Below, piece by piece: positions 2 through 33,909 of a stretch of 37,240 nucleotides of DNA. This stretch comes from Candidatus Nomurabacteria bacterium (lineage in GTDB: Bacteria > Patescibacteriota > Minisyncoccia > Phycocordibacterales > JAACPR01). The position numbers and the translations under genes are program-made. The notes below the pieces were generated by a model, which saw only the letters and a list, made by a program, of their open reading frames with translations, was not told the DNA's origin and searched no databases. The first letter of the stretch is position 1, and the number at the start of each line of letters is the position of its first letter. The stretch lies in NCBI GenBank assembly GCA_020632215.1, contig JACKFZ010000001.1:83444-120683 (forward strand), in the 5' to 3' direction.

Positions 2-151
2 CAGCTGGAACTTCAATTGATAGATGGAACAAAAGAAATTAATAAAGAGTATGCTTTGGCACTAGGTTTCAGAGAAGTCGAAGATAAGGTATATTTAGAG
101 CGCGATCCTTCAACTCGCTTGTCTTTGTTAAATGAAACATCATCTCAGTAA
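2..151 (+). CDS. 3' end of a gene truncated by the window start; possible FtsL-like cell-division protein
   Basis: Open frame from position 2 (QLELQLIDGTKEINKEYALALGFREVEDKVYLERDPSTRLSLLNETSSQ*) ends at TAA 149-151 and overlaps the ftsI start. Its position upstream of ftsI is where ftsL usually lies. Confidence 0.5.
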   Translation, partial: QLELQLIDGTKEINKEYALALGFREVEDKVYLERDPSTRLSLLNETSSQ

Positions 152-1835
152 AACTAGAATAAGGCTAATTTTATTTTTCTTAATTGCCTTGTCATTTATT
201 ATACTTTTACGACTTTACTCCTTGCAGATAATGCGTAGTGATGACTATGCACAAAAGGCTGATAGACAATATGTTAGACCGAATTCATCAATTTTTAACA
301 GAGGATCCATCTCTTTTTCTACTAAAGATGGATCAATTATTGATGCAGCTACTTTGCAAACTGGTTACAATGTCACCATCAATCCAAGTACCTTGAAAGA
401 GCCCGCGGATGTTTTTAACAACTTATCTTTTATTCTGGAATTGGATGAAAATGATTTCTTTAAAAGTGCTGATAAAACCGAAGATCCTTACGAAGAAATA
501 TTTAAAAGGGCAACACCGAGTGATGCAGAAAAAATAAAAGAAATGGATATAGATGGTGTTTCTCTTTATAAAGATAGGTGGCGATTTTATCCAGGAAAAT
601 CTCTTGGCTCGCATGTTTTAGGTTTTATGTCTTACAAAGGTGATGAACTTCGAGGGCAATATGGTTTGGAGAGACAATACAATGAAGTACTAGATAAAAG
701 TCATAATAGCTTATATGCTAATTTTTTTATAGAAATTTTTTCTGGAGTAGGAAATAGCTTGAAAGGAAAAGATTCTAGCGGTTCAATTATCACAACTATC
801 GAACCAACAGTTCAAACATTTGTGGAGAAAGAGATAGATAATGTGAGATCAAATTGGTCTGCCAAGAAAACGGGAGTAATTGTCATGAATCCAAAAAATG
901 GAGAAATTTATTCCATGGCTTTAAATCCAACTTTTGATCTAAATACTTTCAATGAAGTAGATGATATTGCTATATACAAAAATGATTTGGTGGAAAGTGT
1001 GTATGAAATGGGGTCAATCGTAAAACCACTAACAATGGCTATTGGTTTAGATACCAATTCTGTTATTGCTGGAACGACATATGAAGATAGGGGACAACTG
1101 ACTTTGAATAATCGAACTTTTTATAATTATGATGGAAAAGCTCGTGGCGTTGTGAGTATGCAAGATGTTTTGAATAATTCACTCAACACCGGCGTTGCTT
1201 TTGTTGTTAGTCGTGTTGGTAATAATGTTTTTTCTGATTACATGAAGAAGCTAATAGGAAATACTACCGATATAGATTTACCAAACGAAGCTTCTCCGTT
1301 GGTAAGTAATCTTGATAGTCCTCGTGATATTGAACATGCAACAGCATCTTTTGGCCAAGGTATTGCCATGTCACCGATTTCTATTACAAGAGCCTTGGCT
1401 TCTTTGGGTAATGGGGGATTATTAATTCATCCTCATGTAGTGAAGTCTATTAAATATGATTTGGGCTACACAAAAGAGGTGGATGAAAGAGAACCTATAA
1501 GAATTTTCTCAGAAGAAACATCAGAAGAAATATCGCGTATGCTTGTCACTGTAGTTGACGATGCTTTGCTAGGAGGAACTGTGGCTTTGCCAAATTACAC
1601 AATTGCTGCTAAAACAGGTACAGCTCAGATAGCTAATGGAAGAGGTGGCTACTATGATGATAGGTATTTACACTCTTTTTTTGGTTATTTCCCGGCTTAT
1701 GATCCAGAGTTTATAGTCTTTTTGTATGTAATTGAACTGTATGGTGTTCAATATGCTTCACAGACTTTGACTGAACCATTTATGAATATTGCAAAGTTTC
1801 TAATCAATTATTATGAAGTGCCACCTGATCGATAA
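132..1835 (+). CDS. ftsI: Class B penicillin-binding protein (peptidoglycan D,D-transpeptidase, FtsI/PBP2 family)
   Basis: N-terminal TM helix; SxxK (GSIVK), SxN (SLN) and KTG motifs; SFGQGI motif; adjacent to murF. Confidence 0.9.
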   Translation: MKHHLSKTRIRLILFFLIALSFIILLRLYSLQIMRSDDYAQKADRQYVRPNSSIFNRGSISFSTKDGSIIDAATLQTGYNVTINPSTLKEPADVFNNLSFILELDENDFFKSADKTEDPYEEIFKRATPSDAEKIKEMDIDGVSLYKDRWRFYPGKSLGSHVLGFMSYKGDELRGQYGLERQYNEVLDKSHNSLYANFFIEIFSGVGNSLKGKDSSGSIITTIEPTVQTFVEKEIDNVRSNWSAKKTGVIVMNPKNGEIYSMALNPTFDLNTFNEVDDIAIYKNDLVESVYEMGSIVKPLTMAIGLDTNSVIAGTTYEDRGQLTLNNRTFYNYDGKARGVVSMQDVLNNSLNTGVAFVVSRVGNNVFSDYMKKLIGNTTDIDLPNEASPLVSNLDSPRDIEHATASFGQGIAMSPISITRALASLGNGGLLIHPHVVKSIKYDLGYTKEVDEREPIRIFSEETSEEISRMLVTVVDDALLGGTVALPNYTIAAKTGTAQIANGRGGYYDDRYLHSFFGYFPAYDPEFIVFLYVIELYGVQYASQTLTEPFMNIAKFLINYYEVPPDR

Positions 1836-1875: not shown

Positions 1876-3186
1876 ATGAAAGAATTTCTTAAAAAAATAA
1901 TAATCAAAATAATTACTTGGGAATCTAGATTGGTGCTAGCTCGTTTTAGACCAAAAATTATTGCTGTTGTTGGAAGCGTAGGGAAAACTTCTACCAAGGA
2001 TGCTGTTTATTCTGGTTTAAAAAATATTTTATATATTAGAAAAAATCAAAAAAGTTTTAATAGTGAAATAGGTGTACCTCTTACTATTCTTGGTTTAGCT
2101 AATGCATGGGGGAATTATGGATTGTGGTTTTGGAATGTTATTAGGGGATTTCTAACTATATTTTCTTTTAATTATCCAAAATGGCTCATTCTTGAGCTTG
2201 GAATAGATAGACCCGGTGATATGAAAAAATATGCGTCTTGGATAAAGCCAGATGTTGTTATCCTTACTAGTTTTCCTGATGTGCCAGTGCACGTAGAATA
2301 TTTCGAATCTCCTGAAGATGTTATTGCAGAGAAAAAAGAAATTTTAAAATCTTTGAAGTATGACGGTGCTTTGGTACTGAATGCAGACGACCCAAAAGTC
2401 TTTGCGGTAGCAGAAGAGATGAAAAGTAAAATAAAAAAGGTTGTCACATTTGGACTTTCAACAAAAGCAGACGTTTCTATTTCAAATATGGATGTTATCT
2501 ATGAAAATTTTGATAATCATCAAGTGCCAACCGGCGTTTCTTTCAAAGGAAATTATAATGGTAACTCAGTTCCTATTGCTCTACACGGTGCGTTAGGAGT
2601 ACAGCATATTTATCCGATGGCTGCTGCTATGGCTACTGCTCTAGTATTAGATCTTCCTATACTATCTGTTGTTGATGCTCTGCATTATCATCAGGTGCCA
2701 AAAGGTCGAATGAATATTATAGAAGCTATAAATAATTCTGTTTTGATAGATGACTCATATAATGCTTCTCCAGAGTCTATGTCTAAGGCAATTGAAGTAT
2801 TGGGCCAATTAGAGACTAATAGTTCAAAAATAGCCATTTTGGGCGATATGCTTGAAATTGGAAAGTACACCGTTAGGGAGCATAGACGGATAGGGGAAAT
2901 GGTTAAAAATCAGGGTATAAATTTTCTATTCGCTATTGGACTTCGTTCAAAGGATATGGCTTTGGCAGCAGTAGAATCTGGTATGTCCGAGGACCATGTT
3001 TTTCATTTTGATTCATCAGAAGAAGCCATTGAGACAGTTTTGAAATATATAAAGCCTTATTCTCTAATTTTAATAAAAGGTTCTCAAGGAGCTAGGATGG
3101 AGAAAATATCTGGAGCTATTATCAAAGATCAAGACAACAAAGATGATCTGCTTGTTAGACAGGAAGGGGAGTGGGAAAGGAGATAA
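1876..3186 (+). CDS. murF: UDP-N-acetylmuramoyl-tripeptide--D-Ala-D-Ala ligase
   Basis: GSVGKTSTK P-loop, NSEIGVPLT, DDSYNASP, LGDMLEIG and IKGSQG motifs of MurF. Confidence 0.93.
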   Translation: MKEFLKKIIIKIITWESRLVLARFRPKIIAVVGSVGKTSTKDAVYSGLKNILYIRKNQKSFNSEIGVPLTILGLANAWGNYGLWFWNVIRGFLTIFSFNYPKWLILELGIDRPGDMKKYASWIKPDVVILTSFPDVPVHVEYFESPEDVIAEKKEILKSLKYDGALVLNADDPKVFAVAEEMKSKIKKVVTFGLSTKADVSISNMDVIYENFDNHQVPTGVSFKGNYNGNSVPIALHGALGVQHIYPMAAAMATALVLDLPILSVVDALHYHQVPKGRMNIIEAINNSVLIDDSYNASPESMSKAIEVLGQLETNSSKIAILGDMLEIGKYTVREHRRIGEMVKNQGINFLFAIGLRSKDMALAAVESGMSEDHVFHFDSSEEAIETVLKYIKPYSLILIKGSQGARMEKISGAIIKDQDNKDDLLVRQEGEWERR

Positions 3187-3190
3187 GAAT

Positions 3191-3354
3191 CAAAAATTCG
3201 AAGTACGAAATACGAAATCCGAAGCAAATATTAAATTTTAATAAATAAATTATAAACAAATAGTGAAATTTATACTTGTCTAATATTAAAACCAGGTACT
3301 ATATTTATAGCTTAATATTTAGAATTTGTTTCGGATTTCGATATTCGGATTTAC
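3191..3354 (+). mobile_element. ORF-less copy of the heptamer-inverted-repeat element that carries the four-helix-bundle gene at 10.6-11.1 kb
   Basis: Left arm cgaagta cgaaata cgaaatc cgaagca; right arm tgtttcg gatttcg atattcg gatttac. Positions 3240-3274 are identical (35 nt) to 10605-10639. Mobility is inferred. Confidence 0.75.
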
Positions 3355-3382
3355 CTGACTGCTAGCAGGACGCTTTGTCTCA

Positions 3383-3410
3383 TTTACATTTTATTTCAAA
3401 GTGCTATCAT
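3383..3410 (+). promoter_or_regulatory. Sigma70-type promoter for the leader-ridA-ilvA transcript
   Basis: TTTACA (3383-3388), 16-nt spacer, TGc-TATCAT extended -10 (3402-3410). Confidence 0.6.
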
Positions 3411-3418
3411 CTAAAGAC

Positions 3419-3493
3419 ATGACAAATATAGCTATCTACAACATTATAATTATTATGAGCTCAGGGCGAGGCAGAGGTCTGATTTGTGTCTAG
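3419..3493 (+). CDS. Ile-rich attenuator leader peptide (24 aa, ilvL-like)
   Basis: MTNIAIYNIIIIMSSGRGRGLICV*: six Ile codons in the first 12 (four consecutive), upstream of a terminator and of ilvA. Confidence 0.75.
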   Translation: MTNIAIYNIIIIMSSGRGRGLICV

Positions 3494-3514
3494 TTGTAGA
3501 AAATAGATAGAAAT

Positions 3515-3539
3515 AAGCCCTCTACCACGAGGGTTTTTT
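3515..3539 (+). terminator. Attenuator (intrinsic) terminator
   Basis: aagccctc-taccac-gagggttt stem-loop ending in a T6 tract, 33 nt upstream of the ridA ATG. Confidence 0.8.
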
Positions 3540-3572
3540 AAATTAATAATTAATAGTTGATAATCAATAATT

Positions 3573-3956
3573 ATGAAAAAAGAGATAAAAACAGAAAAAG
3601 CACCAGCACCAGTAGGACCTTATTCACAGGCTATTGAGATTAACGGAATGGTTTTTTGCTCTGGACAAATTGCATTAGATCCTGTTAGTGGAAATATAAG
3701 AGGTGACAATGCAGTATCTCAATTCGAAGTGGTAATTCAAAATTTAATAAATGTTTTAGAGTCAACAGGAGCAACATTAAATGATGTGGTGAGAGTAGAG
3801 ATTTATTTAAAAGACCTTTCAGATTTTTCGGAAATTAATAATTCATATGAAAAGTTTTTTGTAGATAGACCTTTTCCATCTAGAGTGACGGTCGAAGTCA
3901 ATAGATTACCAAAAGATGCATTAGTAGAAGTATCATGTATAGCTGTTAAAAAATAA
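3573..3956 (+). CDS. ridA: Rid family enamine/imine deaminase (RidA)
   Basis: APAPVGPYSQA, FCSGQIALDP, FPSRVTVEV (catalytic Arg) and LVEVSCIA motifs. Confidence 0.92.
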   Translation: MKKEIKTEKAPAPVGPYSQAIEINGMVFCSGQIALDPVSGNIRGDNAVSQFEVVIQNLINVLESTGATLNDVVRVEIYLKDLSDFSEINNSYEKFFVDRPFPSRVTVEVNRLPKDALVEVSCIAVKK

Positions 3957-3960
3957 AAAT

Positions 3961-5211
3961 ATGCAAAGATTAAAACTGATAAAGGAAGTAGAGAAAGCCA
4001 ATAACAATCTTGACGGAGTCATTACAAGAACACCATTAATTTTAAATAAAAGACTATCAAAAAAATATGGGGCAAATATTTTTCTAAAAAGAGAAGATCT
4101 ACAAGTTGTTAGATCGTATAAACTTCGTGGTGCCTATAACAAAATTTCAAATCTTTCTAAAGAAGAGAAAAAGAGGGGAGTGGTATGTGCTAGTGCTGGT
4201 AATCATGCGCAAGGTGTTGCTTTTGCCTGTTTTGATCTCAAGGTAAAAGGGCATATCTTTATGCCTCTCAATACTCCCAAACAGAAAGTAGATAGAGTGC
4301 GAGAGTTTGGTGATGGATGGACTGAAATTGTCCTAGTTGGTGATACCTATGATGATGCTCATAAAGAAGCTATGGATTTTTGCAAAAAGAAAAAATCTAT
4401 TTTTGTTCATCCTTTCGATGATCTGGAAGTAATAGCAGGACAGGGAACGATCGGAGTAGAAATCATGGAAAAAGCTAACAATGATGTAGATGTTGTGGTG
4501 GTGCCTATCGGTGGAGGTGGGCTGGTTGCGGGACTAGGTTCGTATGTAAAGAGTAAAAACAAAAAGACTAAAATCTTTGGTGTCGAACCTCTAGGGGCAC
4601 CATCTATGACAGCTTCTTTGAAAAAAGGAAAAGTGGTGAAGCTTGATCATATAGAAAAATTTGTTGATGGAGCTGCTGTCAAAGAAGTCGGTCAAGAGAC
4701 TTTTGCTATTGCTAAAAAACTAATAGATGCAATGCACACAGTTCCTGAAGGTAAGGTTTGCACAGAGATGATCTCACTTTATCAACATGATGGCATAGTG
4801 GCTGAACCTGCAGGAACTTTGTCAGTGGCAGTTTTAGATCAAATAAAAAAAGATATAAAAGGGAAAAACATAGTCTGTATCATCAGTGGTGGTAATAACG
4901 ACCTTAGTAGATTCCCAGAAATTGTTGATAAGAGTTTGATTTACGAAGGATTGAAACACTATTTCATTGTAGACTTTCCACAAAGACCTGGAGCTTTGAA
5001 ATTATTTTTGGAAAAAGCTTTAGGTAAGAATGATGATATTACTTTGTTTGAGTATATAAAGAAGAATGCTAGAGAGAGAGGACCAGCTCTTGTCGGTATT
5101 GAGTTGTCTAAAAAAGAGGATTTAGAGAAGTTGATGAAGAGAATGACTAGACTTGGTTTCCATTTTGAGAAACTAGAAAGTGATAGTCCAATGTTTAGAT
5201 TTTTGGTGTAG
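3961..5211 (+). CDS. ilvA: Threonine ammonia-lyase, short form with one C-terminal ACT-like domain
   Basis: KREDLQVVRSYKLRGA (PLP lysine), ASAGNHAQG, PIGGGGL, EPAG, SGGNND and FPQRPGAL motifs. Confidence 0.93.
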   Translation: MQRLKLIKEVEKANNNLDGVITRTPLILNKRLSKKYGANIFLKREDLQVVRSYKLRGAYNKISNLSKEEKKRGVVCASAGNHAQGVAFACFDLKVKGHIFMPLNTPKQKVDRVREFGDGWTEIVLVGDTYDDAHKEAMDFCKKKKSIFVHPFDDLEVIAGQGTIGVEIMEKANNDVDVVVVPIGGGGLVAGLGSYVKSKNKKTKIFGVEPLGAPSMTASLKKGKVVKLDHIEKFVDGAAVKEVGQETFAIAKKLIDAMHTVPEGKVCTEMISLYQHDGIVAEPAGTLSVAVLDQIKKDIKGKNIVCIISGGNNDLSRFPEIVDKSLIYEGLKHYFIVDFPQRPGALKLFLEKALGKNDDITLFEYIKKNARERGPALVGIELSKKEDLEKLMKRMTRLGFHFEKLESDSPMFRFLV

Positions 5212-5222
5212 AGTGGTGGTGT

Positions 5223-5534
5223 TTAAGTTAACGCAATGTCTTTCAGGTATTTAGATACAGAGTCGTATCCTTTCTTTATTGCTTTTTGCTCTATCTTTTT
5301 CTTATCTTCTGCTGAAACTCTGAATCTAATAACTTCTCCTTTTTTGGCATTATATTTTTGTTCTGCAATAATTAGATTTGGTAAATCTAAAATCAACTCA
5401 GGAATATCTTCAGCTAGAAAATTTTGATCAATTTTTGCATCTTTAGAGGTAAAGTGAATAGTCCCATCTTTATTTTTTTCTAAAGCATAAGAATAAATTT
5501 TGTTTTTTATTGTAATATTTGCTTTTGTTTTCAT
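5223..5534 (-). CDS. hicB: HicB-like antitoxin with C-terminal ribbon-helix-helix
   Basis: Overlaps the hicA stop; C-terminal VIRFRVSAEDKKKIEQKA...SVSKYLKDIAL is RHH-like; the N-terminus is a degenerate HicB-type fold. Confidence 0.6.
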   Translation of the reverse strand: MKTKANITIKNKIYSYALEKNKDGTIHFTSKDAKIDQNFLAEDIPELILDLPNLIIAEQKYNAKKGEVIRFRVSAEDKKKIEQKAIKKGYDSVSKYLKDIALT

Positions 5535-5773
5535 AATAAATATTTGATAATTTTATATATTTGTCTTTTATAAAATGGCTTGCATTCGTTACTATGGATG
5601 GGAACTATAACATCGTTAGGGAATTTCTGATTTTTATATTTCACATGACTACCTTTTGTCTGGATTTTTTCAAAGCCAAGTGATACTAGTATTTTTTCTA
5701 TATCTCTAAACTTTAACTTTTCTGGATCTTCTTTGAATTTGAATTTAGCAATCAGCTTATCCCTAATTGTCAT
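5531..5773 (-). CDS. hicA: HicA family mRNA interferase toxin
   Basis: LKFRDIEKILVSLGF...KGSHVKY...VIVPIH pattern of HicA. Confidence 0.85.
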   Translation of the reverse strand: MTIRDKLIAKFKFKEDPEKLKFRDIEKILVSLGFEKIQTKGSHVKYKNQKFPNDVIVPIHSNECKPFYKRQIYKIIKYLL

Positions 5774-6475: not shown

Positions 6476-6745
6476 GGGCAGGCTTAATGAAACTCGCAAG
6501 ATCTAAGCGATACAAAAATACATATCGCTTCGCTATATGTATTTTTTATCGTGTGAGTCTACCGGGAATCGGTCACAAGTCACTAAGCTTTTTGTCTCGC
6601 TCGTAGACTCGCTCACAAAAATCTAAGTGCTCGCGACCCCGCCTCGAAAGCTTCGCTTTCTCCGGCCTTCGATTATCTCCTCAGGAGATTCACTAAGAAC
6701 AAAAATAGCCCCGGATAAACCGGGACTATTTTGGTCCTGTGACCC
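6476..6745. repeat. Copy 1 of a 263-270 bp direct repeat of the tRNA-Glu downstream region
   Basis: Colinear with and highly similar to 7695-7957. Contains a degenerate tRNA 3'-end copy (6553-6571) and several hairpins. Confidence 0.9.
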
Positions 6746-6834
6746 AAGTGGGACAGAATTGGAACCAATTGGTTAGAGAACTACAAGTATGGCAGGTTTT
6801 TGGAAAGGAAGTATTTGAGAACAAGACCGCTTAA
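6739..6834 (+). pseudogene. Possible C-terminal tail of a lost site-specific recombinase at an att junction
   Basis: VTQVGQNWNQLVRELQVWQVFGKEVFENKTA* begins exactly at a degenerate tRNA-end copy (gtgaccc). The recombinase-tail identity is inferred from resemblance only. Confidence 0.4.
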
Positions 6835-6845
6835 TGGTAATAAAA

Positions 6846-7562
6846 CTAACCATGAGCCATATTAGTAAATTTCTCTATCTCTCCGTAGTTTTTTGAACCA
6901 TCAAGGTTTTGGACTCCTGTCTCGACATCAACACCATAAAATCCTCCAACCTCCATTGCAGCTTCTAAATTTATAGTTTTCAATCCTCCTGCCAGCCATA
7001 CAGGTAGATTACTTTCTTCTAATATTTTTTTACTAATAGACCAATCATGAGTTTGCCCTGTCCCTCCTGTCATATCTCCAACTTTTGAATCTAGAAGAAT
7101 TGCACTCAGAACGCCTGTCTCTTCATATCTTTTTGCCTCTTGTATAGCATCATGACCCGTAACATGGATAACTTTTACAATCTCAAGGTCTGGAAGTGCT
7201 TCTTTGATTTTCAATACTTCTTCAGGTGAAATATCACCTGTTAACTGAATGTGCGATGGCTGTACTCTGTTTGCAAAGTTAATATTAGTTTCTGCATCCT
7301 CTGCATTAGTAAGCATAAAAGTCTTTATATCACCATGTGACTTTTTTAATGTCTCAACTATTTCTACTGCTTGTTCCTCAGGAATATTATTTTTTGCTAG
7401 CTCTTTATCAAAGCCGACTAATACACCTATAGCATCTGGATGCAGATTACATATTTTATTTGCTTCCTCTACTGTTCTTACACCACAAATCTTAACTTTT
7501 AATTTAGGAGTCGATTCTATACTCTCAGTCACTTCCGTCTTTGGGTTACTTTGTTCTGGCAT
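6846..7562 (-). CDS. trpF: Phosphoribosylanthranilate isomerase (PRAI)
   Basis: KVKICG, HIQLTG, ILLDS...GGTGQTHDW, VWLAGGL and GVDVETGV motifs. Confidence 0.88.
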   Translation of the reverse strand: MPEQSNPKTEVTESIESTPKLKVKICGVRTVEEANKICNLHPDAIGVLVGFDKELAKNNIPEEQAVEIVETLKKSHGDIKTFMLTNAEDAETNINFANRVQPSHIQLTGDISPEEVLKIKEALPDLEIVKVIHVTGHDAIQEAKRYEETGVLSAILLDSKVGDMTGGTGQTHDWSISKKILEESNLPVWLAGGLKTINLEAAMEVGGFYGVDVETGVQNLDGSKNYGEIEKFTNMAHG

Positions 7563-7694: not shown

Positions 7695-7957
7695 GGGCAG
7701 GCTTAATGAAACTCGGCGAGATCTAAGCGATATAAAATTACATATCGCTTCGCTATATGTATTTTTATCGTGTGACCCTACCGGGAATCGGTCACAAGTC
7801 ACTAAGCTTTTTACTTCGCTCCACTCGTAAAAATCTAAGTGCTCGCGACCCCGCCTCGAAAGCTTCGCTTTCTCCGGCCTTCGATTATCTCCTCAGGAGA
7901 TTCACTGAGAACAAAAATAGCCCCGGATAAACCGGGACTATTTTGGTCCTGTGACCC
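7695..7957. repeat. Copy 2 of the tRNA-downstream direct repeat, including the att-like copy at 7772-7790
   Basis: See 6476-6745. Positions 7772-7790 (gtgaccctaccgggaatcg) are identical to 7951-7969. Confidence 0.9.
7914..7944 (-). terminator. Intrinsic terminator downstream of tRNA-Glu
   Basis: Minus strand aaaatagtcccgg-tttat-ccggggctatttt (13-bp stem with one G:U) ending in Ts; a second copy lies in repeat 1. Confidence 0.7.
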
Positions 7958-18480: not shown

Positions 18481-18576
18481 TTCATAAAAAATTTAACTTT
18501 TCTTTTATTTTTCTTTATATCACTTATGCTAAAATGAACTTAGGTGGTAAGTGGTTAACCCCCACCCTTGGGCGGG
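18481..18576 (+). repeat. Copy 2 (uninterrupted) of the promoter plus conserved 40-nt unit
   Basis: See 8773-8940; TGc-TAAAAT at 18527-18535. Confidence 0.85.
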
Positions 18577-18632
18577 AAATTTATCTAAATTTTAAAATTT
18601 AGATTTTGGATATTTTAAGATAGCCTAATTTT

Positions 18633-20626: not shown

Positions 20627-20685
20627 TTTTTGTCTCACCCACCAACATCAACAGGGAAGAGGAGACCCCTTTTTAGTAACTTAAT

Positions 20686-20737
20686 GAGATTCTGAATGTG
20701 GGTCCCTCGACTTCGCTCGGAACTCCTTCAGAATGAC
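20686..20737 (-). repeat. CGTC-tagged REP-like palindrome
   Basis: Minus strand (c)gtcattctgaa...ttcagaatctc, with an internal gcgaag/cttcgc motif. Confidence 0.6.
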
Positions 20738-20829
20738 GGAGGGTTGTGTTAGAAGGATTTGAATAAAATGTCAATTCATTGTTTTATTTGAGGCACCTGT
20801 GGATAACTTCAGGGGGCCCTTCTCTATAT

Positions 20830-21055
20830 ATGTCGCACAATATATCTTTTCCGACATAATACCGTACATTTAACTATAAATTATATATTTATATAATGTT
20901 GATCATATAACTAACTAAGCATGTATCTTGGATACTTGTCGGAAAAGATGGCGCGATTGTGCGACTAAAAATACACCTCATTTCTATTAAAAATACACCT
21001 CATTTCTATATTTATTACTATTTCGTAATTTTGTCGCACAATCGCTTTTGCGACA
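20830..21055. other. Three related palindromic sites (TGTCG...CGAC) plus a 22-bp tandem duplication
   Basis: Sites at 20830-20857, 20937-20966 and 21032-21055; tandem taaaaatacacctcatttctat at 20966-21009. Confidence 0.7.
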
Positions 21056-21403
21056 TAATACTATATAAATAACTATAAATAATACAGCGTGATAATGATC
21101 TAGATAATGAATTTATGTCCTACTTCTCTACTATATTTATAAATAAAAGGTAATAAAGAGTAAATTTATTTCTTTATAATTCTCTTTATTTTTAGTCCTA
21201 TTAACTATTTACTACGAACTACTGACTAATTTTACGAGGCTCAAAATGCCTCAATTTGATGCCTTGAATATGTGAGACTATGGATTGATCATCTATTTTT
21301 TCTTTTAATATTAGGGAAGTCGAGTATATAGAAAAAGTTACTCCTCTCCCCTTTTTATTTTAAAAAATTAGGGGACTGGGATTTTTATTTTTAAAATTTA
21401 TAA

Positions 21404-21428
21404 GATCCCAAATCAAGTTTAGGATGAC
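21404..21428 (-). repeat. CGTC-tagged REP-like palindrome
   Basis: Minus strand (c)gtcatcctaaacttgatttgggatc, just after the stop of 21437-21661. Confidence 0.6.
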
Positions 21429-21436
21429 GCTGTGCG

Positions 21437-21661
21437 TCAATTACCAATACCTAGTTCGTGAGCTAGTTTGATTGCAAGGTCAACAACGAAGGTCAAAATA
21501 GTAATAGCTGCATCCCATGTAAATTGAATTATTGGTAAAACATGGTCAGTCCAAATAACTTTCGGATTTAACCCAAAGAAAGTTAGTATGACTACTGCAA
21601 TAATGATTATGAAAATAAGTTGGACAAAACCACGTTTGTTGTTTTTAAAATAAGCTTTCAT
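21437..21661 (-). CDS. Small membrane protein with pilin-like N-terminus
   Basis: KNNKRG|FVQLIFIIIIAVVIL resembles a class III signal peptide but lacks Glu+5. Confidence 0.6.
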   Translation of the reverse strand: MKAYFKNNKRGFVQLIFIIIIAVVILTFFGLNPKVIWTDHVLPIIQFTWDAAITILTFVVDLAIKLAHELGIGN

Positions 21662-21677
21662 TAATTAATAGTATATC

Positions 21678-21748
21678 AGTAAATAGTAAATACTAAATAG
21701 TAAATAGCTCTGTTTTTTCTATTTACTATTTACTATTTACTATTTAGT
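21678..21748. repeat. Heptamer-periodic inverted repeat (about 30-bp stem, 11-nt loop)
   Basis: agtaaat agtaaat actaaat agtaaat ag / ct atttact atttact atttact atttagt. Confidence 0.9.
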
Positions 21749-21753
21749 AATTA

Positions 21754-23058
21754 CTAGAAGTAATCTAACGGATTTAAGTATGCATTTAAGGCCGCTATAG
21801 GAACATAAGCATTTTTACAACCAATACTATTGCTGAATTGTTGAACTTTTACAGCATCTTTGGGGAAAATGCTCATATGTAGATGGGCCGCTGTAGAATA
21901 TCCGGTATTACCACTAAGACCAAGTAAGGCACCAGTTTGCACAGATTCTCCGGCTTTAACAGAACGAACGGATAGATGGGCATATAAAGCTGTTAGACCG
22001 TTGTTGTAATCAACCAATATCCATTGGCCGTAAGATTTACATCCTGGCACCGCATCCATGTTGTAAGTTGACCTTACAACTCCATTTGCGCTAGCATAAA
22101 TTTTTGTTCCTATTGGAGCTCGAAAATCAACTCCACGATGAGGATTTGGCTGGCCATTTGAGTATCCATATGCACCAGATAATGCAAAAGAGGTTAAACC
22201 AAAGCCTTGAGTAACCACAGGTTCGGAAACAGGGTATTTCAATACCCCACTCCCCTTGTTTGGCAATTTGCTTGGATCAAGAGTAAATTGTAATTGTGAT
22301 TCTAATGCGTTCAAGTCACTTTCTATCTGAGCTCGAGCTGCTTCTTTCTCTTTTAATATTCTTTGATACTCAGCTTCTGTACTTTTTGTAACAGTCAGTA
22401 GTTGCTGCTTTTCTTGTTTGGTATAGGCTACAGCTGATTTTTCTCCTGATAATTCTTTTTTCAAGCTTTCCAGATTTACTTTTTCCTCGACTTTTTCCTG
22501 ATGGTCTTCTTGTAAGGCTGAAGTTAAATCCTGTAGATTTAGGACAGTGCCATACACACTAGCTTTAAAAGCTTCTAGGTTTCTAAGATCATTAAAAACT
22601 TCTGAAAAGTTTTTTTTGAAAAGAATAATTTCTATTAGAGATTCTGATTCACTTTGGTTCATGTCTCTTATAGTTTTTGCTAAAACATCTCTATTGTTTA
22701 GAATTTTTGTTTCTTTGTCTGTGATTTCTAATTCTAGTTTATTTAGAGCGTAATTACTTTCATTGATACCAGTTTCAGTCTTCTGTATCTCTGTACCAAT
22801 TTTCTTCTCAGTTAAATTGAGGGAATTTACAGTAGTTTGTAATGTAGTTGTTTGTTTGTTTATTTCTACTAACTTTGCTCTTTGCTCGGCAATTTCTTTG
22901 TCTAGTTTTTCTTTGGCAATTCTTTGCTCTTCAATTTTTTCTTGCAATTCATCAACTGTCTCGGCTTTTGTTATTGGAACCGAGTTTGATATAAAAATAA
23001 AAAGTAGAATCAGAATTGGAGATATTATTTTATTCTTTTTCAATTTTAGATATTGCAT
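21754..23058 (-). CDS. Coiled-coil M23 family peptidase (EnvC-like architecture)
   Basis: Signal/TM, long coiled coil, HRGVD, YAHLS and HLH motifs. Confidence 0.88.
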   Translation of the reverse strand: MQYLKLKKNKIISPILILLFIFISNSVPITKAETVDELQEKIEEQRIAKEKLDKEIAEQRAKLVEINKQTTTLQTTVNSLNLTEKKIGTEIQKTETGINESNYALNKLELEITDKETKILNNRDVLAKTIRDMNQSESESLIEIILFKKNFSEVFNDLRNLEAFKASVYGTVLNLQDLTSALQEDHQEKVEEKVNLESLKKELSGEKSAVAYTKQEKQQLLTVTKSTEAEYQRILKEKEAARAQIESDLNALESQLQFTLDPSKLPNKGSGVLKYPVSEPVVTQGFGLTSFALSGAYGYSNGQPNPHRGVDFRAPIGTKIYASANGVVRSTYNMDAVPGCKSYGQWILVDYNNGLTALYAHLSVRSVKAGESVQTGALLGLSGNTGYSTAAHLHMSIFPKDAVKVQQFSNSIGCKNAYVPIAALNAYLNPLDYF

Positions 23059-29708: not shown

Positions 29709-29742
29709 TATTTAACCACTCCCAATCCCAAAATTCAACCTC
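29709..29742. repeat. 34-bp direct repeat, copy 1
   Basis: tatttaaccactcccaatcccaaaattcaacctc, identical at 30535-30568. Confidence 0.95.
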
Positions 29743-29861
29743 TCAAAAGTCTATATTCAGGGATGTTGATAACCTTGATTTTAGTCTAGAAAAATGATAT
29801 ACATATTGCATACCTATCTCGAGGTTAATTCGGGAAAACGATCCACAAAGACCTGACTTGC

Positions 29862-30534: not shown

Positions 30535-30568
30535 TATTTAACCACTCCCAATCCCAAAATTCAACCTC
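30535..30568. repeat. 34-bp direct repeat, copy 2
   Basis: Identical to 29709-29742; abuts and overlaps the stop codon of the M48 gene. Confidence 0.95.
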
Positions 30569-31115
30569 ACACCAACCCCTTCAATTCCCTCTCCCACTTC
30601 TTATAATCTGGACAAAAGGTGGCTACTAGAGCCCAGTAACTTTTGCTGTGGTTTAGAAACTTCAAGTGGCACAGTTCGTGAATGATGACATAATCTCGGA
30701 TTTCGGGCTTAGTGAACATTAGCTTGTAGTTGAAGTTCAAATAACCTTGTGATGAACAACTTCCCCATCTACCTCTTTGATTTCTAATGCTAATTCTTTT
30801 GTATTTTAAACCAACTTTTTGACTGAGCTTCTCAACTCTCTCAGTAATCACTTTTCTAGCTTCTTCTTTATGTTTTTGATAATGCCTTTTAGAAAAAATA
30901 GTTAGATCTTTGTTTTCAATTTTATTTATCTTTTTATCTATTTTGGCTAAATGTCTTTTGATCCATTCTATATGTCTATTTACAAAAGAATGAATAGATT
31001 CTTCTTGCACTGTATAAGGAGCTACAGCTGTGACAAGGCCATTAGGAGAAATAGTGACACTCATTCTTTTAGCTCTGTAGCTTCTACGAACTTTGTAAGG
31101 GATGTTGTGGGGCAT
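30567..31115 (-). CDS. M48/YgjP (DUF45) family metallopeptidase
   Basis: RWGSCS and YVIIHELCH (HExxH) motifs. Confidence 0.9.
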   Translation of the reverse strand: MPHNIPYKVRRSYRAKRMSVTISPNGLVTAVAPYTVQEESIHSFVNRHIEWIKRHLAKIDKKINKIENKDLTIFSKRHYQKHKEEARKVITERVEKLSQKVGLKYKRISIRNQRGRWGSCSSQGYLNFNYKLMFTKPEIRDYVIIHELCHLKFLNHSKSYWALVATFCPDYKKWERELKGLV

Positions 31116-32664: not shown

Positions 32665-32780
32665 GGTACTTCGGGGTTCGGGTTCATCCGAACATTACCA
32701 TTCTTATACTAAATGTCAATTACCTGTATATATTAAAAAGATCTTGAATCAAGATCAGTATGACGGTGTTTTTATTTCTT

Positions 32781-32834
32781 CTGACGTCTGATGTCTAATT
32801 TCTGAAAACTGATCGCTGATAGCTGACAGCTGAA
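32781..32834. repeat. Eight 7-nt-periodic units directly after the mraY stop
   Basis: ctgacgt ctgatgt ctaattt ctgaaaa ctgatcg ctgatag ctgacag ctgaa. Confidence 0.85.
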
Positions 32835-32835
32835 C

Positions 32836-33909
32836 TCACCCCACCAACGCCACAATCACTCCTAAAACAGCGAAGATTACAGAGATAACCCAATATCGCA
32901 TTGTTACTTTGTATGCTGGCCAGCCGATAGCTTCAAAGTGATGATGAAGAGGTGCTACTTGGAAGACTTTTTTTCCATTTCTAAATTTCTTAGAGAAAAG
33001 CTGAATAATGACTGACAAAACAGTAATCACTAGAGGAAAAGCAATGATAGGTAGAACGGCTATTCCTACCCCACCTACTAGAGAGTCAGTCATGAAGGCG
33101 AGAACCGCTAAAGTGCTCGTTAGAGCCATAGAACCGGTCTCTGACATATAGAAGCGGGCTGGAGGGATATTGAACCAAAGAAAGGCCAAAATAGACCCTA
33201 CAACGAGCATTGCAAAGGCAGCTAGGTCGAACTGATGCAGCGAAAAGGCGATGGCTCCATAGGCTGTAAACATAATAGAAAAAACTCCACCAGCTAGCCC
33301 ATCTATACCATCTATCACTCCTCCAGAATATACTGCCAGAATGATGATGGTGTATAGAGGAATAATTAGCCATCCAATGTTCCAGTTTCCAATAATAGGA
33401 ATACCAATAGAGACCACATCTAGTTTAAAGAAAAACCATGAACCTATAAGTATTCCAACGATGGCCATAGTACCAAGTCTGACACTTAGAGAAAGTCCAC
33501 CTCCGATATATTTTCCACTTCCTCTAATTTCTAAAATATCATCAATAAGTCCAATAATCGCACCAACTAACAAAGTAGCAAAAGGAATCCAAGTTTGATT
33601 TCTACTGATGAATTCTAATTTATCTAAAGCTTCAATATCAAAAAATCTCGCAATAAACCAAATCAATCCTCCAATGATGAGAACAGAAGTCCAAATTAAT
33701 ATTCCTCCGAGTCGTGGAGTTCCCACTTCTTTTTCTTTATGCATTTGATTGAAAATAGGAGTTCCGTGTCCATCAATGGCTACTTCTTTTACCTTCTTTT
33801 TCCAAAGTTGTTTTTTATATAAAAAGTCTGTCAGATAAGGAGCAAAGCCAACGCCTATCAAGAAAGAGAGAGTGGAGGGTAATATTACTTTTACAATATC
33901 TAAAATCAT
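32836..33909 (-). CDS. mraY: Phospho-MurNAc-pentapeptide transferase
   Basis: GTPRLGG, IGLIDD, DGIDGL, FNIPPARFYMSETGS and APLHHHFE motifs. Confidence 0.93.
   Translation of the reverse strand: MILDIVKVILPSTLSFLIGVGFAPYLTDFLYKKQLWKKKVKEVAIDGHGTPIFNQMHKEKEVGTPRLGGILIWTSVLIIGGLIWFIARFFDIEALDKLEFISRNQTWIPFATLLVGAIIGLIDDILEIRGSGKYIGGGLSLSVRLGTMAIVGILIGSWFFFKLDVVSIGIPIIGNWNIGWLIIPLYTIIILAVYSGGVIDGIDGLAGGVFSIMFTAYGAIAFSLHQFDLAAFAMLVVGSILAFLWFNIPPARFYMSETGSMALTSTLAVLAFMTDSLVGGVGIAVLPIIAFPLVITVLSVIIQLFSKKFRNGKKVFQVAPLHHHFEAIGWPAYKVTMRYWVISVIFAVLGVIVALVG

Follow-up and report, generated by a model that had tools for sequence, protein, structure and literature searches.

A gene-less heptamer-arm hairpin behind murF as a probable deletion derivative of an intervening-sequence-type cassette

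The stretch analysed here (the window; 37,240 nt of contig JACKFZ010000001.1 of a Candidatus Nomurabacteria bacterium) holds two related palindromic elements, a short one without an open reading frame (ORF) behind murF and a longer one behind rmuC, whose arms enclose the gene of a four-helix-bundle protein known from 23S rRNA intervening sequences (IVSs), the intervening-sequence protein (IVP or S23p). Both elements are of the IVS type and lie outside rRNA. With a probability of roughly 0.55, we regard the element behind murF, called empty below, as a palindromic cassette of the IVS type, like the loaded one behind rmuC, that has lost its ORF by deletion, a reading that includes an IVS-like role in the transcript; the mobility and function of the element we infer. 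The window has a G+C content of 34%, and the homologues of its murF and rmuC carry Candidatus Paceibacterota or Parcubacteria names, assigning the host to the candidate phyla radiation (CPR).

The empty element and its loaded counterpart

An earlier note on this DNA, made from the letters alone, had described the two elements as a loaded and an empty version of one cassette with the same arms and leader, and alignment agrees with this description. Repeat finding matched left arm and leader over 115 nt (3194-3308 and 10559-10673; 88% identity, 14 mismatches) and the right arm over 51 nt (3302-3352 and 11028-11078; 84%). Within the longer block, 35 nt are identical (3240-3274 and 10605-10639; two matches compared with none expected) and are followed by two diverging 22-nt strings, cttgtctaatattaaaaccagg and tttgtttaacattaaagccagg, as quoted earlier. 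The perfect run as a special feature was dropped (P = 0.065 given the overall identity). The bounds of the empty copy, first placed at 3191-3354, had to be moved to 3194-3352, where its ends agree with the termini of the family, AAATYCGAA...TTCGRATTT. It starts 7 nt past the murF stop codon, and the loaded cassette takes its first two bases from the end of the rmuC stop codon.

The evidence for a deletion lies in the junction. In the loaded copy, the ORF is indeed flanked by the 8-nt direct repeat TATTTATT, and the two repeats (Table 1) stand 361 bp apart; the empty copy lacks exactly the stretch between them. Since seven bases of the empty copy belong to both homology blocks, a single TATTTAT remains at the junction where the loaded copy has two, just as predicted for a deletion by slippage or microhomology, the route that had been proposed. 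An 8-mer common to two such short stretches is expected by chance with P ~0.007. The leader remnant at 3251-3301 finds no mirror partner in the right half of the empty copy, which therefore resembles a loaded cassette minus its gene and not a primary hairpin. Target-site duplications were seen at neither of the two window copies. Both loci recur in independent Logan assemblies made from several runs on sludge and wastewater and are therefore no assembly artefact; the contigs of these assemblies stop within the 35-nt repeat, which is normal where a repeat exceeds the assembler's word.

The arms in the window are tandem heptamer arrays (NNNCGAA) and not plain inverted repeats, with TTTCGNN units in the right arm, numbering three in the empty and four in the loaded copy. 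In the window, nine occurrences of the heptamer motif of the arms were counted compared with 0.77 expected, all of them within these two elements, and Tandem Repeats Finder reported period 7 at 3194-3223. As inverted repeats, the arms measure 50 nt (empty) and 57 nt (loaded) and are 76-77% complementary. Folded as RNA, the empty element reached -36.8 kcal/mol (z -3.8) with a core stem of 17 bp, and the loaded cassette -136.5 kcal/mol (z -5.8), its arms closing the whole cassette. The terminator scan revealed no intrinsic (Rho-independent) terminator in 3194-3352, its sole site being 3515-3545, and an Rfam scan of the window returned tRNA-Glu only, the hairpins having no family and just sub-threshold matches to microRNA precursors, as generic long hairpins do. 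A promoter of its own in the empty copy was considered and dropped; the sigma-70-like TTGTCT-18-TATATT (3276-3305) is weak (9 of 12), and the TTGTTT of the loaded copy fails the scan.

The product of the loaded ORF is a four-helix-bundle protein, as the earlier note had recognised, scoring 53.1 bits with PF05635 (cut-off 33.8; positions 8-104 of 106 covered) and 69.7 bits with TIGR02436 (cut-off 24). It has more than 8000 homologues, has 34 invariant columns in common with 21 of them, and its sole relative in the PDB is the pentameric 2RLD (E 4e-13). PADLOC left the protein unmatched. Neither a transposase nor a reverse transcriptase lies near the gene, and a reverse transcriptase was likewise not seen among the other ORFs scanned, a subset of those in the window.

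The 35-nt core forms a unitig of its own, with about twice the single-copy depth in two runs (9 compared with 4.6, and 26 compared with 11-13). By this depth, the subfamily has no copies in the genome beyond the two of the window, and the non-coding part thus shows no sign of spreading there. Contigs of a strain variant and of the read runs displayed no filled/empty polymorphism at one site. The strain variant, from another run, keeps the empty copy with seven single-nucleotide polymorphisms (SNPs) over 661 nt, all within 3217-3370; three fall into the arms, one of which keeps a G-U pair while two break pairs. This clustering, together with the two broken pairs, points to weak constraint on the empty copy, which is probably a nearly neutral relic.

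Whether murF orthologues lack the insert or carry the full cassette received a divided answer. Relatives with 55% identical MurF lack the insert, having a 45-nt spacer and different downstream genes, whereas in a relative with 78% identical MurF (L174, 7312-7369) aaaatccgaaacacaagagaaaaagcacgaaaactt... after the murF stop resembles CGAA-type heptamers; this contig ends 58 nt past the stop, and an element may occupy the same site there. No cassette follows rmuC in relatives with 88% and 78% identical RmuC. The presence of the cassette appears to be lineage-specific. The right arm of the empty copy, for its part, matches many other contigs from sludge metagenomes.

Heptamer arrays around IVP genes and in gene-less hairpins

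The layout of the loaded cassette recurs around other IVP genes. We ascertained 18 IVP genes independently, that of the window included, chosen regardless of their flanks and coming from seven named phyla, and all 18 have heptamer arrays on both sides, nearly always inverted and typically of four units. The IVP genes considered include those of a JGI contig (L033; gene order Iso_dh, IVP, GTPase), a Parcubacteria genome (L037; GAPDH, IVP, NuoF), a Bacteroidetes-labelled metagenome-assembled genome (MAG; L181), Candidatus Deferrimicrobium (L182) and another MAG in which a neighbouring gene matches PF22296 bAvd (L183), two distant ones met by chance (L096, L132), and ten from plasmids (L184-L193) of Nostoc (two species), Anabaena, Planktothrix, Gloeocapsa, Pseudanabaena, Bernardetia, Chondrinema, Chlorohelix and Monoglobus. 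N. punctiforme, for example, has (AATTCGC)x4 ahead of the ATG and (GCGAATT)x4 behind the stop. For 17 of the 18 genes, the flanks were scored for self-similarity at lag 7 (L193 was judged by eye only); lag 7 topped all other lags and 500 shuffles in 31 of 34 flanks, with scores of 15-26 out of 28; among random control stretches of 120 nt, just ~3% score 17 or more.

The heptamers are lineage-specific (CGAAATN, CCTAAAT, AATTCAA, AAAGTAA, TCTAAAA, ATGAAGG, ATCCCCA/ATCGTAA and TTAGGAA), and their sequence tracks the protein, not the host. IVPs at least 46% identical to that of the window have CGAAA-type units, whether in CPR, the Bacteroidetes-labelled MAG or Deferrimicrobiota, with L037 (CCTAAAT) as the sole exception, and IVP pairs at 42-63% identity have heptamers one or two bases apart. 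This suggests, at the level of sequence, that the IVP protein and the arm heptamer co-diverge. The IVP gene is co-directional with its neighbours on both sides in 15 of the 16 cases having called neighbours, the exception being Anabaena cylindrica, where it lies antisense between cas1 and cas2. In the IVP cassettes, the arm begins at the upstream stop codon or within ~25 nt of it, and in several of them one arm abuts the start codon (...CGAAACAAATTCAA-ATG) and the stop codon abuts the right arm, so that the ORF is exactly the apical loop. The loaded architecture is best taken as ancestral and general. A profile search with the IVP alignment in viral contigs confirmed nothing.

Several plasmid cassettes were found within defence operons (L185, L187, L188, L189, L190 and L191). 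The IVP gene lies between cas2 and cas1 in Anabaena and before cas1 in Pseudanabaena, is a pseudogene between hsdS and hsdR in Monoglobus, and in Chlorohelix, Planktothrix and Gloeocapsa is located between helicase and methylase or HEPN genes.

IVPs are annotated by the thousands as 'four helix bundle protein', often within restriction, CRISPR and other operons, and read as an associated gene; to our knowledge, no function has been assigned to the protein encoded in rRNA IVSs for about thirty years. The evidence given here points to the IVP gene as cargo of a cassette whose layout is constant, with inverted arrays of about four heptamers each, and which lies between co-directional genes. If this is true, IVSs are a special case of a general element, the reported association of the IVP domain with CRISPR and restriction loci may reflect the insertion sites of the cassette as a mere by-product, and a cheap test of function opens, namely binding of the pentamer to its own heptamer arrays.

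Gene-less relatives were sought with the 19-nt arm pattern GAATTTGTTTCGNATTTCG, which comprises the inner arm plus one and a half units and is found without mismatch in L033 and the two window copies. The pattern matched 13 viral-contig loci and at least 120 metagenome-contig loci. Among the matches listed, to which the following counts refer, an IVP ORF adjoins 7 of 144 arm matches, and 71 non-redundant hairpins of 109-348 nt were extracted. Under strict arm calling, the arm-to-arm distance is bimodal, with sixty elements below 300 nt (most at 50-150 nt) and six at 400-850 nt, five with an IVP and one probably a calling artefact; ORF-less forms thus outnumber loaded ones about 10 to 1. Four units were counted in 81 of 120 arms. 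The earlier suggestion that the non-coding part spreads or persists alone therefore stands in its second half, ORF-less forms being kept widely (~60 hairpins of 110-250 nt compared with ~5-7 gene-carrying ones), and is without sign in its first for this genome with its two copies. Gene-less heptamer-arm hairpins are the common form of the family in nature, and many bacterial phyla have them.

The hairpins have a G+C content of 0.25-0.45 compared with 0.45-0.69 in their hosts, and sharp ends: conservation sets in abruptly at AAAT[CT]CGAA, its outer limit lying exactly 5 nt ahead of the first CGAA core, and the sequence is near random from position -6 outward. The flanks of 60 elements, searched for target-site duplications, revealed neither a direct repeat nor a conserved target. 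The spacers holding ORF-less hairpins are tandem in 35 cases, convergent in 12 and divergent in 6, and a bias of the ORF-less hairpins towards gene 3' ends is not significant (61 compared with 47, p = 0.21). None of the 134 arm-bearing loci listed lies in an rRNA context; that of L136 was considered, and its one motif match proved to be chance. BLASTN of a perfect hairpin against plasmids gave no match, possibly owing to the low-complexity filter.

Two of the hairpins, L042 and L044, are orthologous, having identical outer arms and unrelated apices; with the outer arms kept while the apex differs, the apex behaves like a variable slot. Long, nested, perfect G+C-rich palindromes occur in the apices of some hairpins (L078, 13541-13836; L171).

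Deletion, mobility and likeness to known elements

On the deletion reading, a loaded cassette like 10559-11086 would have been copied to a site just after murF. Slippage or recombination involving the two TATTTATT repeats would then have removed 361 bp including the complete ORF, while arms and leader stayed. By analogy with rRNA IVSs, the empty element probably forms the 3' end of the murF transcript, where it would fold into a long imperfect stem that RNase III may cut or that may do no more than cap the RNA. The corresponding stem of the loaded cassette would loop out the gene between rmuC and rplU.

The cargo family PF05635/TIGR02436 is common to the window cassette and the 23S rRNA IVSs with an S23p/IVP ORF (Leptospira, Coxiella burnetii, Xanthomonas, Brucella, CPR). 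The C. burnetii IVS sits in helix 45 of 23S rRNA with a 28-bp terminal stem; its S23p ORF has no usable ribosome-binding site, two to three tandem heptameric repeats (GACAGAT) precede the ATG, their number varying by strain, and RNase III cuts at the first of them, the authors concluding that the RNA part of the IVS outweighs the protein (PMC4990558). Insertions in 16S and 23S genes of CPR also hold IVP domains (PMC11270868). In both window elements, terminal inverted repeats close such a stem; 10559-11086 carries the IVP ORF in the loop like the long type, and 3194-3352 is of the ORF-less type. Tandem heptamers on the 5' side with copy numbers varying by whole units, poor or absent ribosome-binding signals, and ORF decay that leaves the RNA part are further likenesses. 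In contrast to IVSs, which are defined by lying inside an rRNA gene, the window elements follow murF and rmuC, the heptamers of their family form arrays on both arms, usually of four units each, and RNase III excision, established for IVSs, can be supposed for them by analogy.

The short ORF-less IVSs of Salmonella, Yersinia and other rrl genes are hairpins of ~90-150 nt in helices 25 and 45. They resemble the present family in size, in carrying no gene and in coexisting in nature with long ORF-bearing versions, but what defines them is their place in rRNA and the fragmentation of that rRNA, and we know of no report of heptamer arrays in their arms. Though much subscription content lay outside our literature search and an earlier description is possible, we found heptamer flanks as a general property of IVP genes undescribed; ORF-less copies outside rRNA were likewise not met with in that search, the Coxiella paper being the only one on heptameric repeats with an IVS.

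Several observations weigh against the deletion reading with its IVS-like role. The stem of the element is imperfect. The CGAA cores agree at 90-100% between the arms of one element, while the three variable bases per heptamer match from arm to arm at chance level at best, some positions falling below it, and identity is 0.71 between an element's own arms compared with 0.745 between arms of different elements. In the covariation and RNA-strand test, there is no excess of G-U pairs (64) over A-C mismatches (74). Since the variable bases display no compensatory evolution, recognition of sequence fits better than a pure double-stranded RNA role, and the conserved motif spaced by 7 nt on both arms would better fit an array of protein-binding sites, or tandem units homogenised by slippage, than a stem selected for pairing. 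Moreover, neither a target duplication nor a transposase was found that explains how a copy came to lie behind murF, the 8-nt repeat might alternatively be the target duplication of an inserted ORF module, and the murF-site copy may be older than the deletion scenario implies, because the relative with 78% identical MurF has CGAA-heptamer-like sequence there.

Part of this evidence suits an active non-autonomous element similar to miniature inverted-repeat transposable elements (MITEs), whose heptamer arrays bind a mobilising protein, either the IVP pentamer itself or a transposase, and whose empty copy spread as DNA; on balance we find it unlikely. Sharp conserved terminal inverted repeats with random sequence beyond AAATYCGAA...TTCGRATTT, AT-rich elements in GC-rich flanks, and CGAA cores conserved in sequence beside variable bases whose pairing is not conserved are what such an element should display, and four units per arm suit a pentameric ring. 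The single arm type around IVP genes more than 46% identical in CPR, the Bacteroidetes-labelled MAG and Deferrimicrobiota, the excess of ORF-less copies and a lineage-specific presence point the same way. MITEs, however, make target-site duplications, of which none was seen, and occur in many copies beside a transposase-coding partner, whereas the genome has two subfamily copies, no filled/empty polymorphism at one site and no transposase or reverse transcriptase nearby, and the sole cargo found is an IVP without known catalytic activity. Correia/NEMIS, ERIC/IRU, RPE and REPIN elements are small, non-coding and intergenic, have inverted ends and are co-transcribed with their neighbours, as would by analogy be the case here; Correia elements are cut by RNase III. 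Such families are restricted to a species or genus, often with target duplications and a known or suspected transposase. In comparison, the present family spans phyla, has no target duplication and arms of 7-nt units, and its sole cargo is a non-enzymatic four-helix bundle.

Equally tentative is a wider idea, in which the IVP and the heptamer arrays would form one system: the pentamer would bind its own arrays of four to five units, as RNA or DNA, and act in trans on ORF-less hairpins by mobilising, protecting or regulating them, as in an autonomous/non-autonomous pair, with rRNA IVSs as one special insertion site and the short tandemly repeated repetitive (STRR) sequences of cyanobacteria as footprints. 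STRRs are likewise tandem 7-nt units in the intergenic DNA of Nostoc and Anabaena, and the flanks of the IVP genes on plasmids of Nostoc, Anabaena and Planktothrix are exactly STRR-like heptamer arrays. As far as we know, STRRs have been described as repeats of unknown role, unlinked to any gene, and our literature search found no paper linking their heptamers to an IVP gene. PF05635 is also the common Pfam family of Avd, the accessory protein of diversity-generating retroelements (PMC10053308). Avd and IVP have a homologous pentameric four-helix-bundle fold in common; the window gene differs in having no adjacent reverse transcriptase or template/variable repeat, among the window ORFs scanned. 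We know of no Avd gene inside heptamer arrays.

A host-selected RNA element, kept because it terminates the murF message, stabilises its 3' end or insulates it, is less probable. The close start behind the murF stop, the stable stem (z -3.8) and its retention by the strain variant would suit this role, and the window's two other heptamer-arm hairpins also begin at stop codons of co-directional genes. But a G+C-rich stem with a U tract behind it is missing from the element, the only terminator lying at 3515-3545, all seven SNPs of the variant cluster in and around it with two of the three in the arms breaking pairs, and the family as a whole displays neither a gene-end bias, its spacers being of all three orientations, nor covariation.

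The reverse history, in which the ORF-less hairpin is older and a 353-bp ORF module was inserted, the TATTTATT pair being its 8-bp target-site duplication, appears slightly less plausible still. It would account for the exact 8-nt direct repeat bracketing the ORF, which chance would rarely produce, and for an apex that is replaceable at orthologous sites while the outer arms stay, as in L042 and L044. The putative module, however, has no ends or enzyme of its own, and the downstream TATTTATT is part of the right arm, where it pairs with AATAAATA in the left arm. Furthermore, IVP genes lie between heptamer arrays in seven named phyla, and the loaded layout therefore long predates the window pair.

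A one-off local duplication without wider meaning, which the earlier note had named as its refuting case, or an assembly artefact is very improbable: there are only two copies of the 35-nt core per genome, and its 19-nt core ACAAATAGTGAAATTTATA gave 29 matches in 185,579 species genomes, all by chance and none extending, but the arm family is large in metagenome and viral contigs, the heptamer layout surrounds every IVP gene examined, and both loci recur in independent assemblies.

Neighbouring genes and other repeats of the window

The features of both elements and the adjoining genes are given in Table 1. The proteins encoded around the loaded cassette are YqeY, RmuC, L21, RecR, DnaB and CysS. 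An exact-protein look-up of MurF, as read in the ORF list, matched no record.

Table 1. Coordinates of the two elements, their parts and the adjoining genes in the window.
Feature	Positions	Strand	Remarks
PBP gene	132-1835		upstream of murF
murF	1876-3186	+	Mur_ligase_M and Mur_ligase_C; homologues named MurF in Paceibacterota; stop codon precedes empty element
Empty heptamer-arm palindromic element (ORF-less)	3194-3352	+	159 nt; direct/inverted repeats, alignment, RNA fold
Left arm, empty copy	3194-3250	+	heptamers TTCGAAG TACGAAA TACGAAA TCCGAAG, then CAAAT and A/T-rich inner stem
Leader remnant	3251-3301	+	homologous to leader of loaded copy; holds most of the 35-nt core
Deletion junction	3302-3309	+	one copy (TATTTATa) of the 8-nt repeat bracketing the ORF
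Right arm, empty copy	3303-3352	+	inner ATTTAGAATTTG, three heptamers TTTCGGA TTTCGAT ATTCGGA, then TTT
ridA	3573-3956		downstream of empty element
Threonine dehydratase gene (ilvA)	3961-5211		after ridA
yqeY		-	~7 kb on from empty element, before rmuC
rmuC	9490-10560	+	PF02646 and homologues; stop codon overlaps start of loaded element
Loaded cassette	10559-11086	+	528 nt; inverted repeat, 57-nt arms, 77% complementary
Left arm, loaded copy	10559-10615	+	four CGAAA heptamers plus inner stem
Leader, arm to ATG	10616-10678	+	no Shine-Dalgarno sequence visible
Upstream copy of TATTTATT	10667-10674	+	8-nt direct repeat
IVP gene	10679-11023	+	114-aa four-helix-bundle protein (23S rRNA intervening-sequence protein, S23p/IVP, Avd-like)
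Downstream copy of TATTTATT	11028-11035	+	8-nt direct repeat; innermost right arm
Right arm, loaded copy	11029-11086	+	inner TAGAATTTAGAATTTG, then four TTTCG heptamers
rplU	11135-11512		follows loaded element

Another hairpin with heptamer arms, of a different sequence type and without a gene, was found at 21675-21756, consisting of (AGTAAAT)x4 and the inverse array (91% complementary, 11-nt loop), and is the third of the window. It begins at the stop of a reverse-strand gene for an M23 peptidase (21754-23058), and 13 nt separate its end from the next small ORF on that strand; its layout is like that of the CGAAA-type elements. Direct heptamer arrays also occur, namely (AGAATGT)x4 between the PBP stop and the murF start (1841-1871), (AATTAAT)x4.7 just ahead of the ridA ATG (3541-3573) and eight NCTGANN units right behind the stop of the reverse-strand gene 32836-33909 (32780-32834). 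Period 7 is seen in 15 of the 40 tandem-repeat rows of the window.

Ahead of ridA and the threonine dehydratase gene, 3419-3545 is likely a transcription attenuator of the ridA-ilvA operon, with a good sigma-70-like site (TTTACA-16-TATCAT, 3383-3410), a 24-codon ORF with seven Ile codons (MTNIAIYNIIIIMSSGRGRGLICV, 3419-3493) and a canonical terminator (3515-3545). Beside the threonine dehydratase gene, the reverse strand likely carries a toxin-antitoxin pair (5223-5773), in which the ORF of a HicA-family toxin (5531-5773) overlaps that of a NikA-like ribbon-helix-helix protein (5223-5534) by 4 nt.

A block of ~260 nt is repeated 1.2 kb apart at 6496-6753 and 7716-7965 (92-96% identity), with a PRA isomerase gene (6846-7562, reverse strand) in between, and a 19-mer of the 3' end of tRNA-Glu (7951-8023, reverse strand) recurs at 6552, 7648, 7771 and 7950, which together looks like serial integration or duplication at a tRNA gene. 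Two intergenic copies of a 55-nt repeat (8910-8964 and 18546-18600; 84%) contain GGTAAGTGGTTAACCCCCACCCTTGGGCGGG, and each adjoins a second common stretch of 38 nt (8773-8810 and 18481-18518). A 37-nt repeat (TATTTAACCACTCCCAATCCCAAAATTCAACCTC; 29709-29745 and 30535-30571, 97% identity) lies upstream of two reverse-strand genes, directly at their start codons, and may be a common promoter or leader. Finally, ~800 nt at 20630-21440 are devoid of long ORFs; within them, 22 nt are perfectly duplicated in tandem (20966-21009) and 53 nt are repeated (20846-20898 and 21045-21097).

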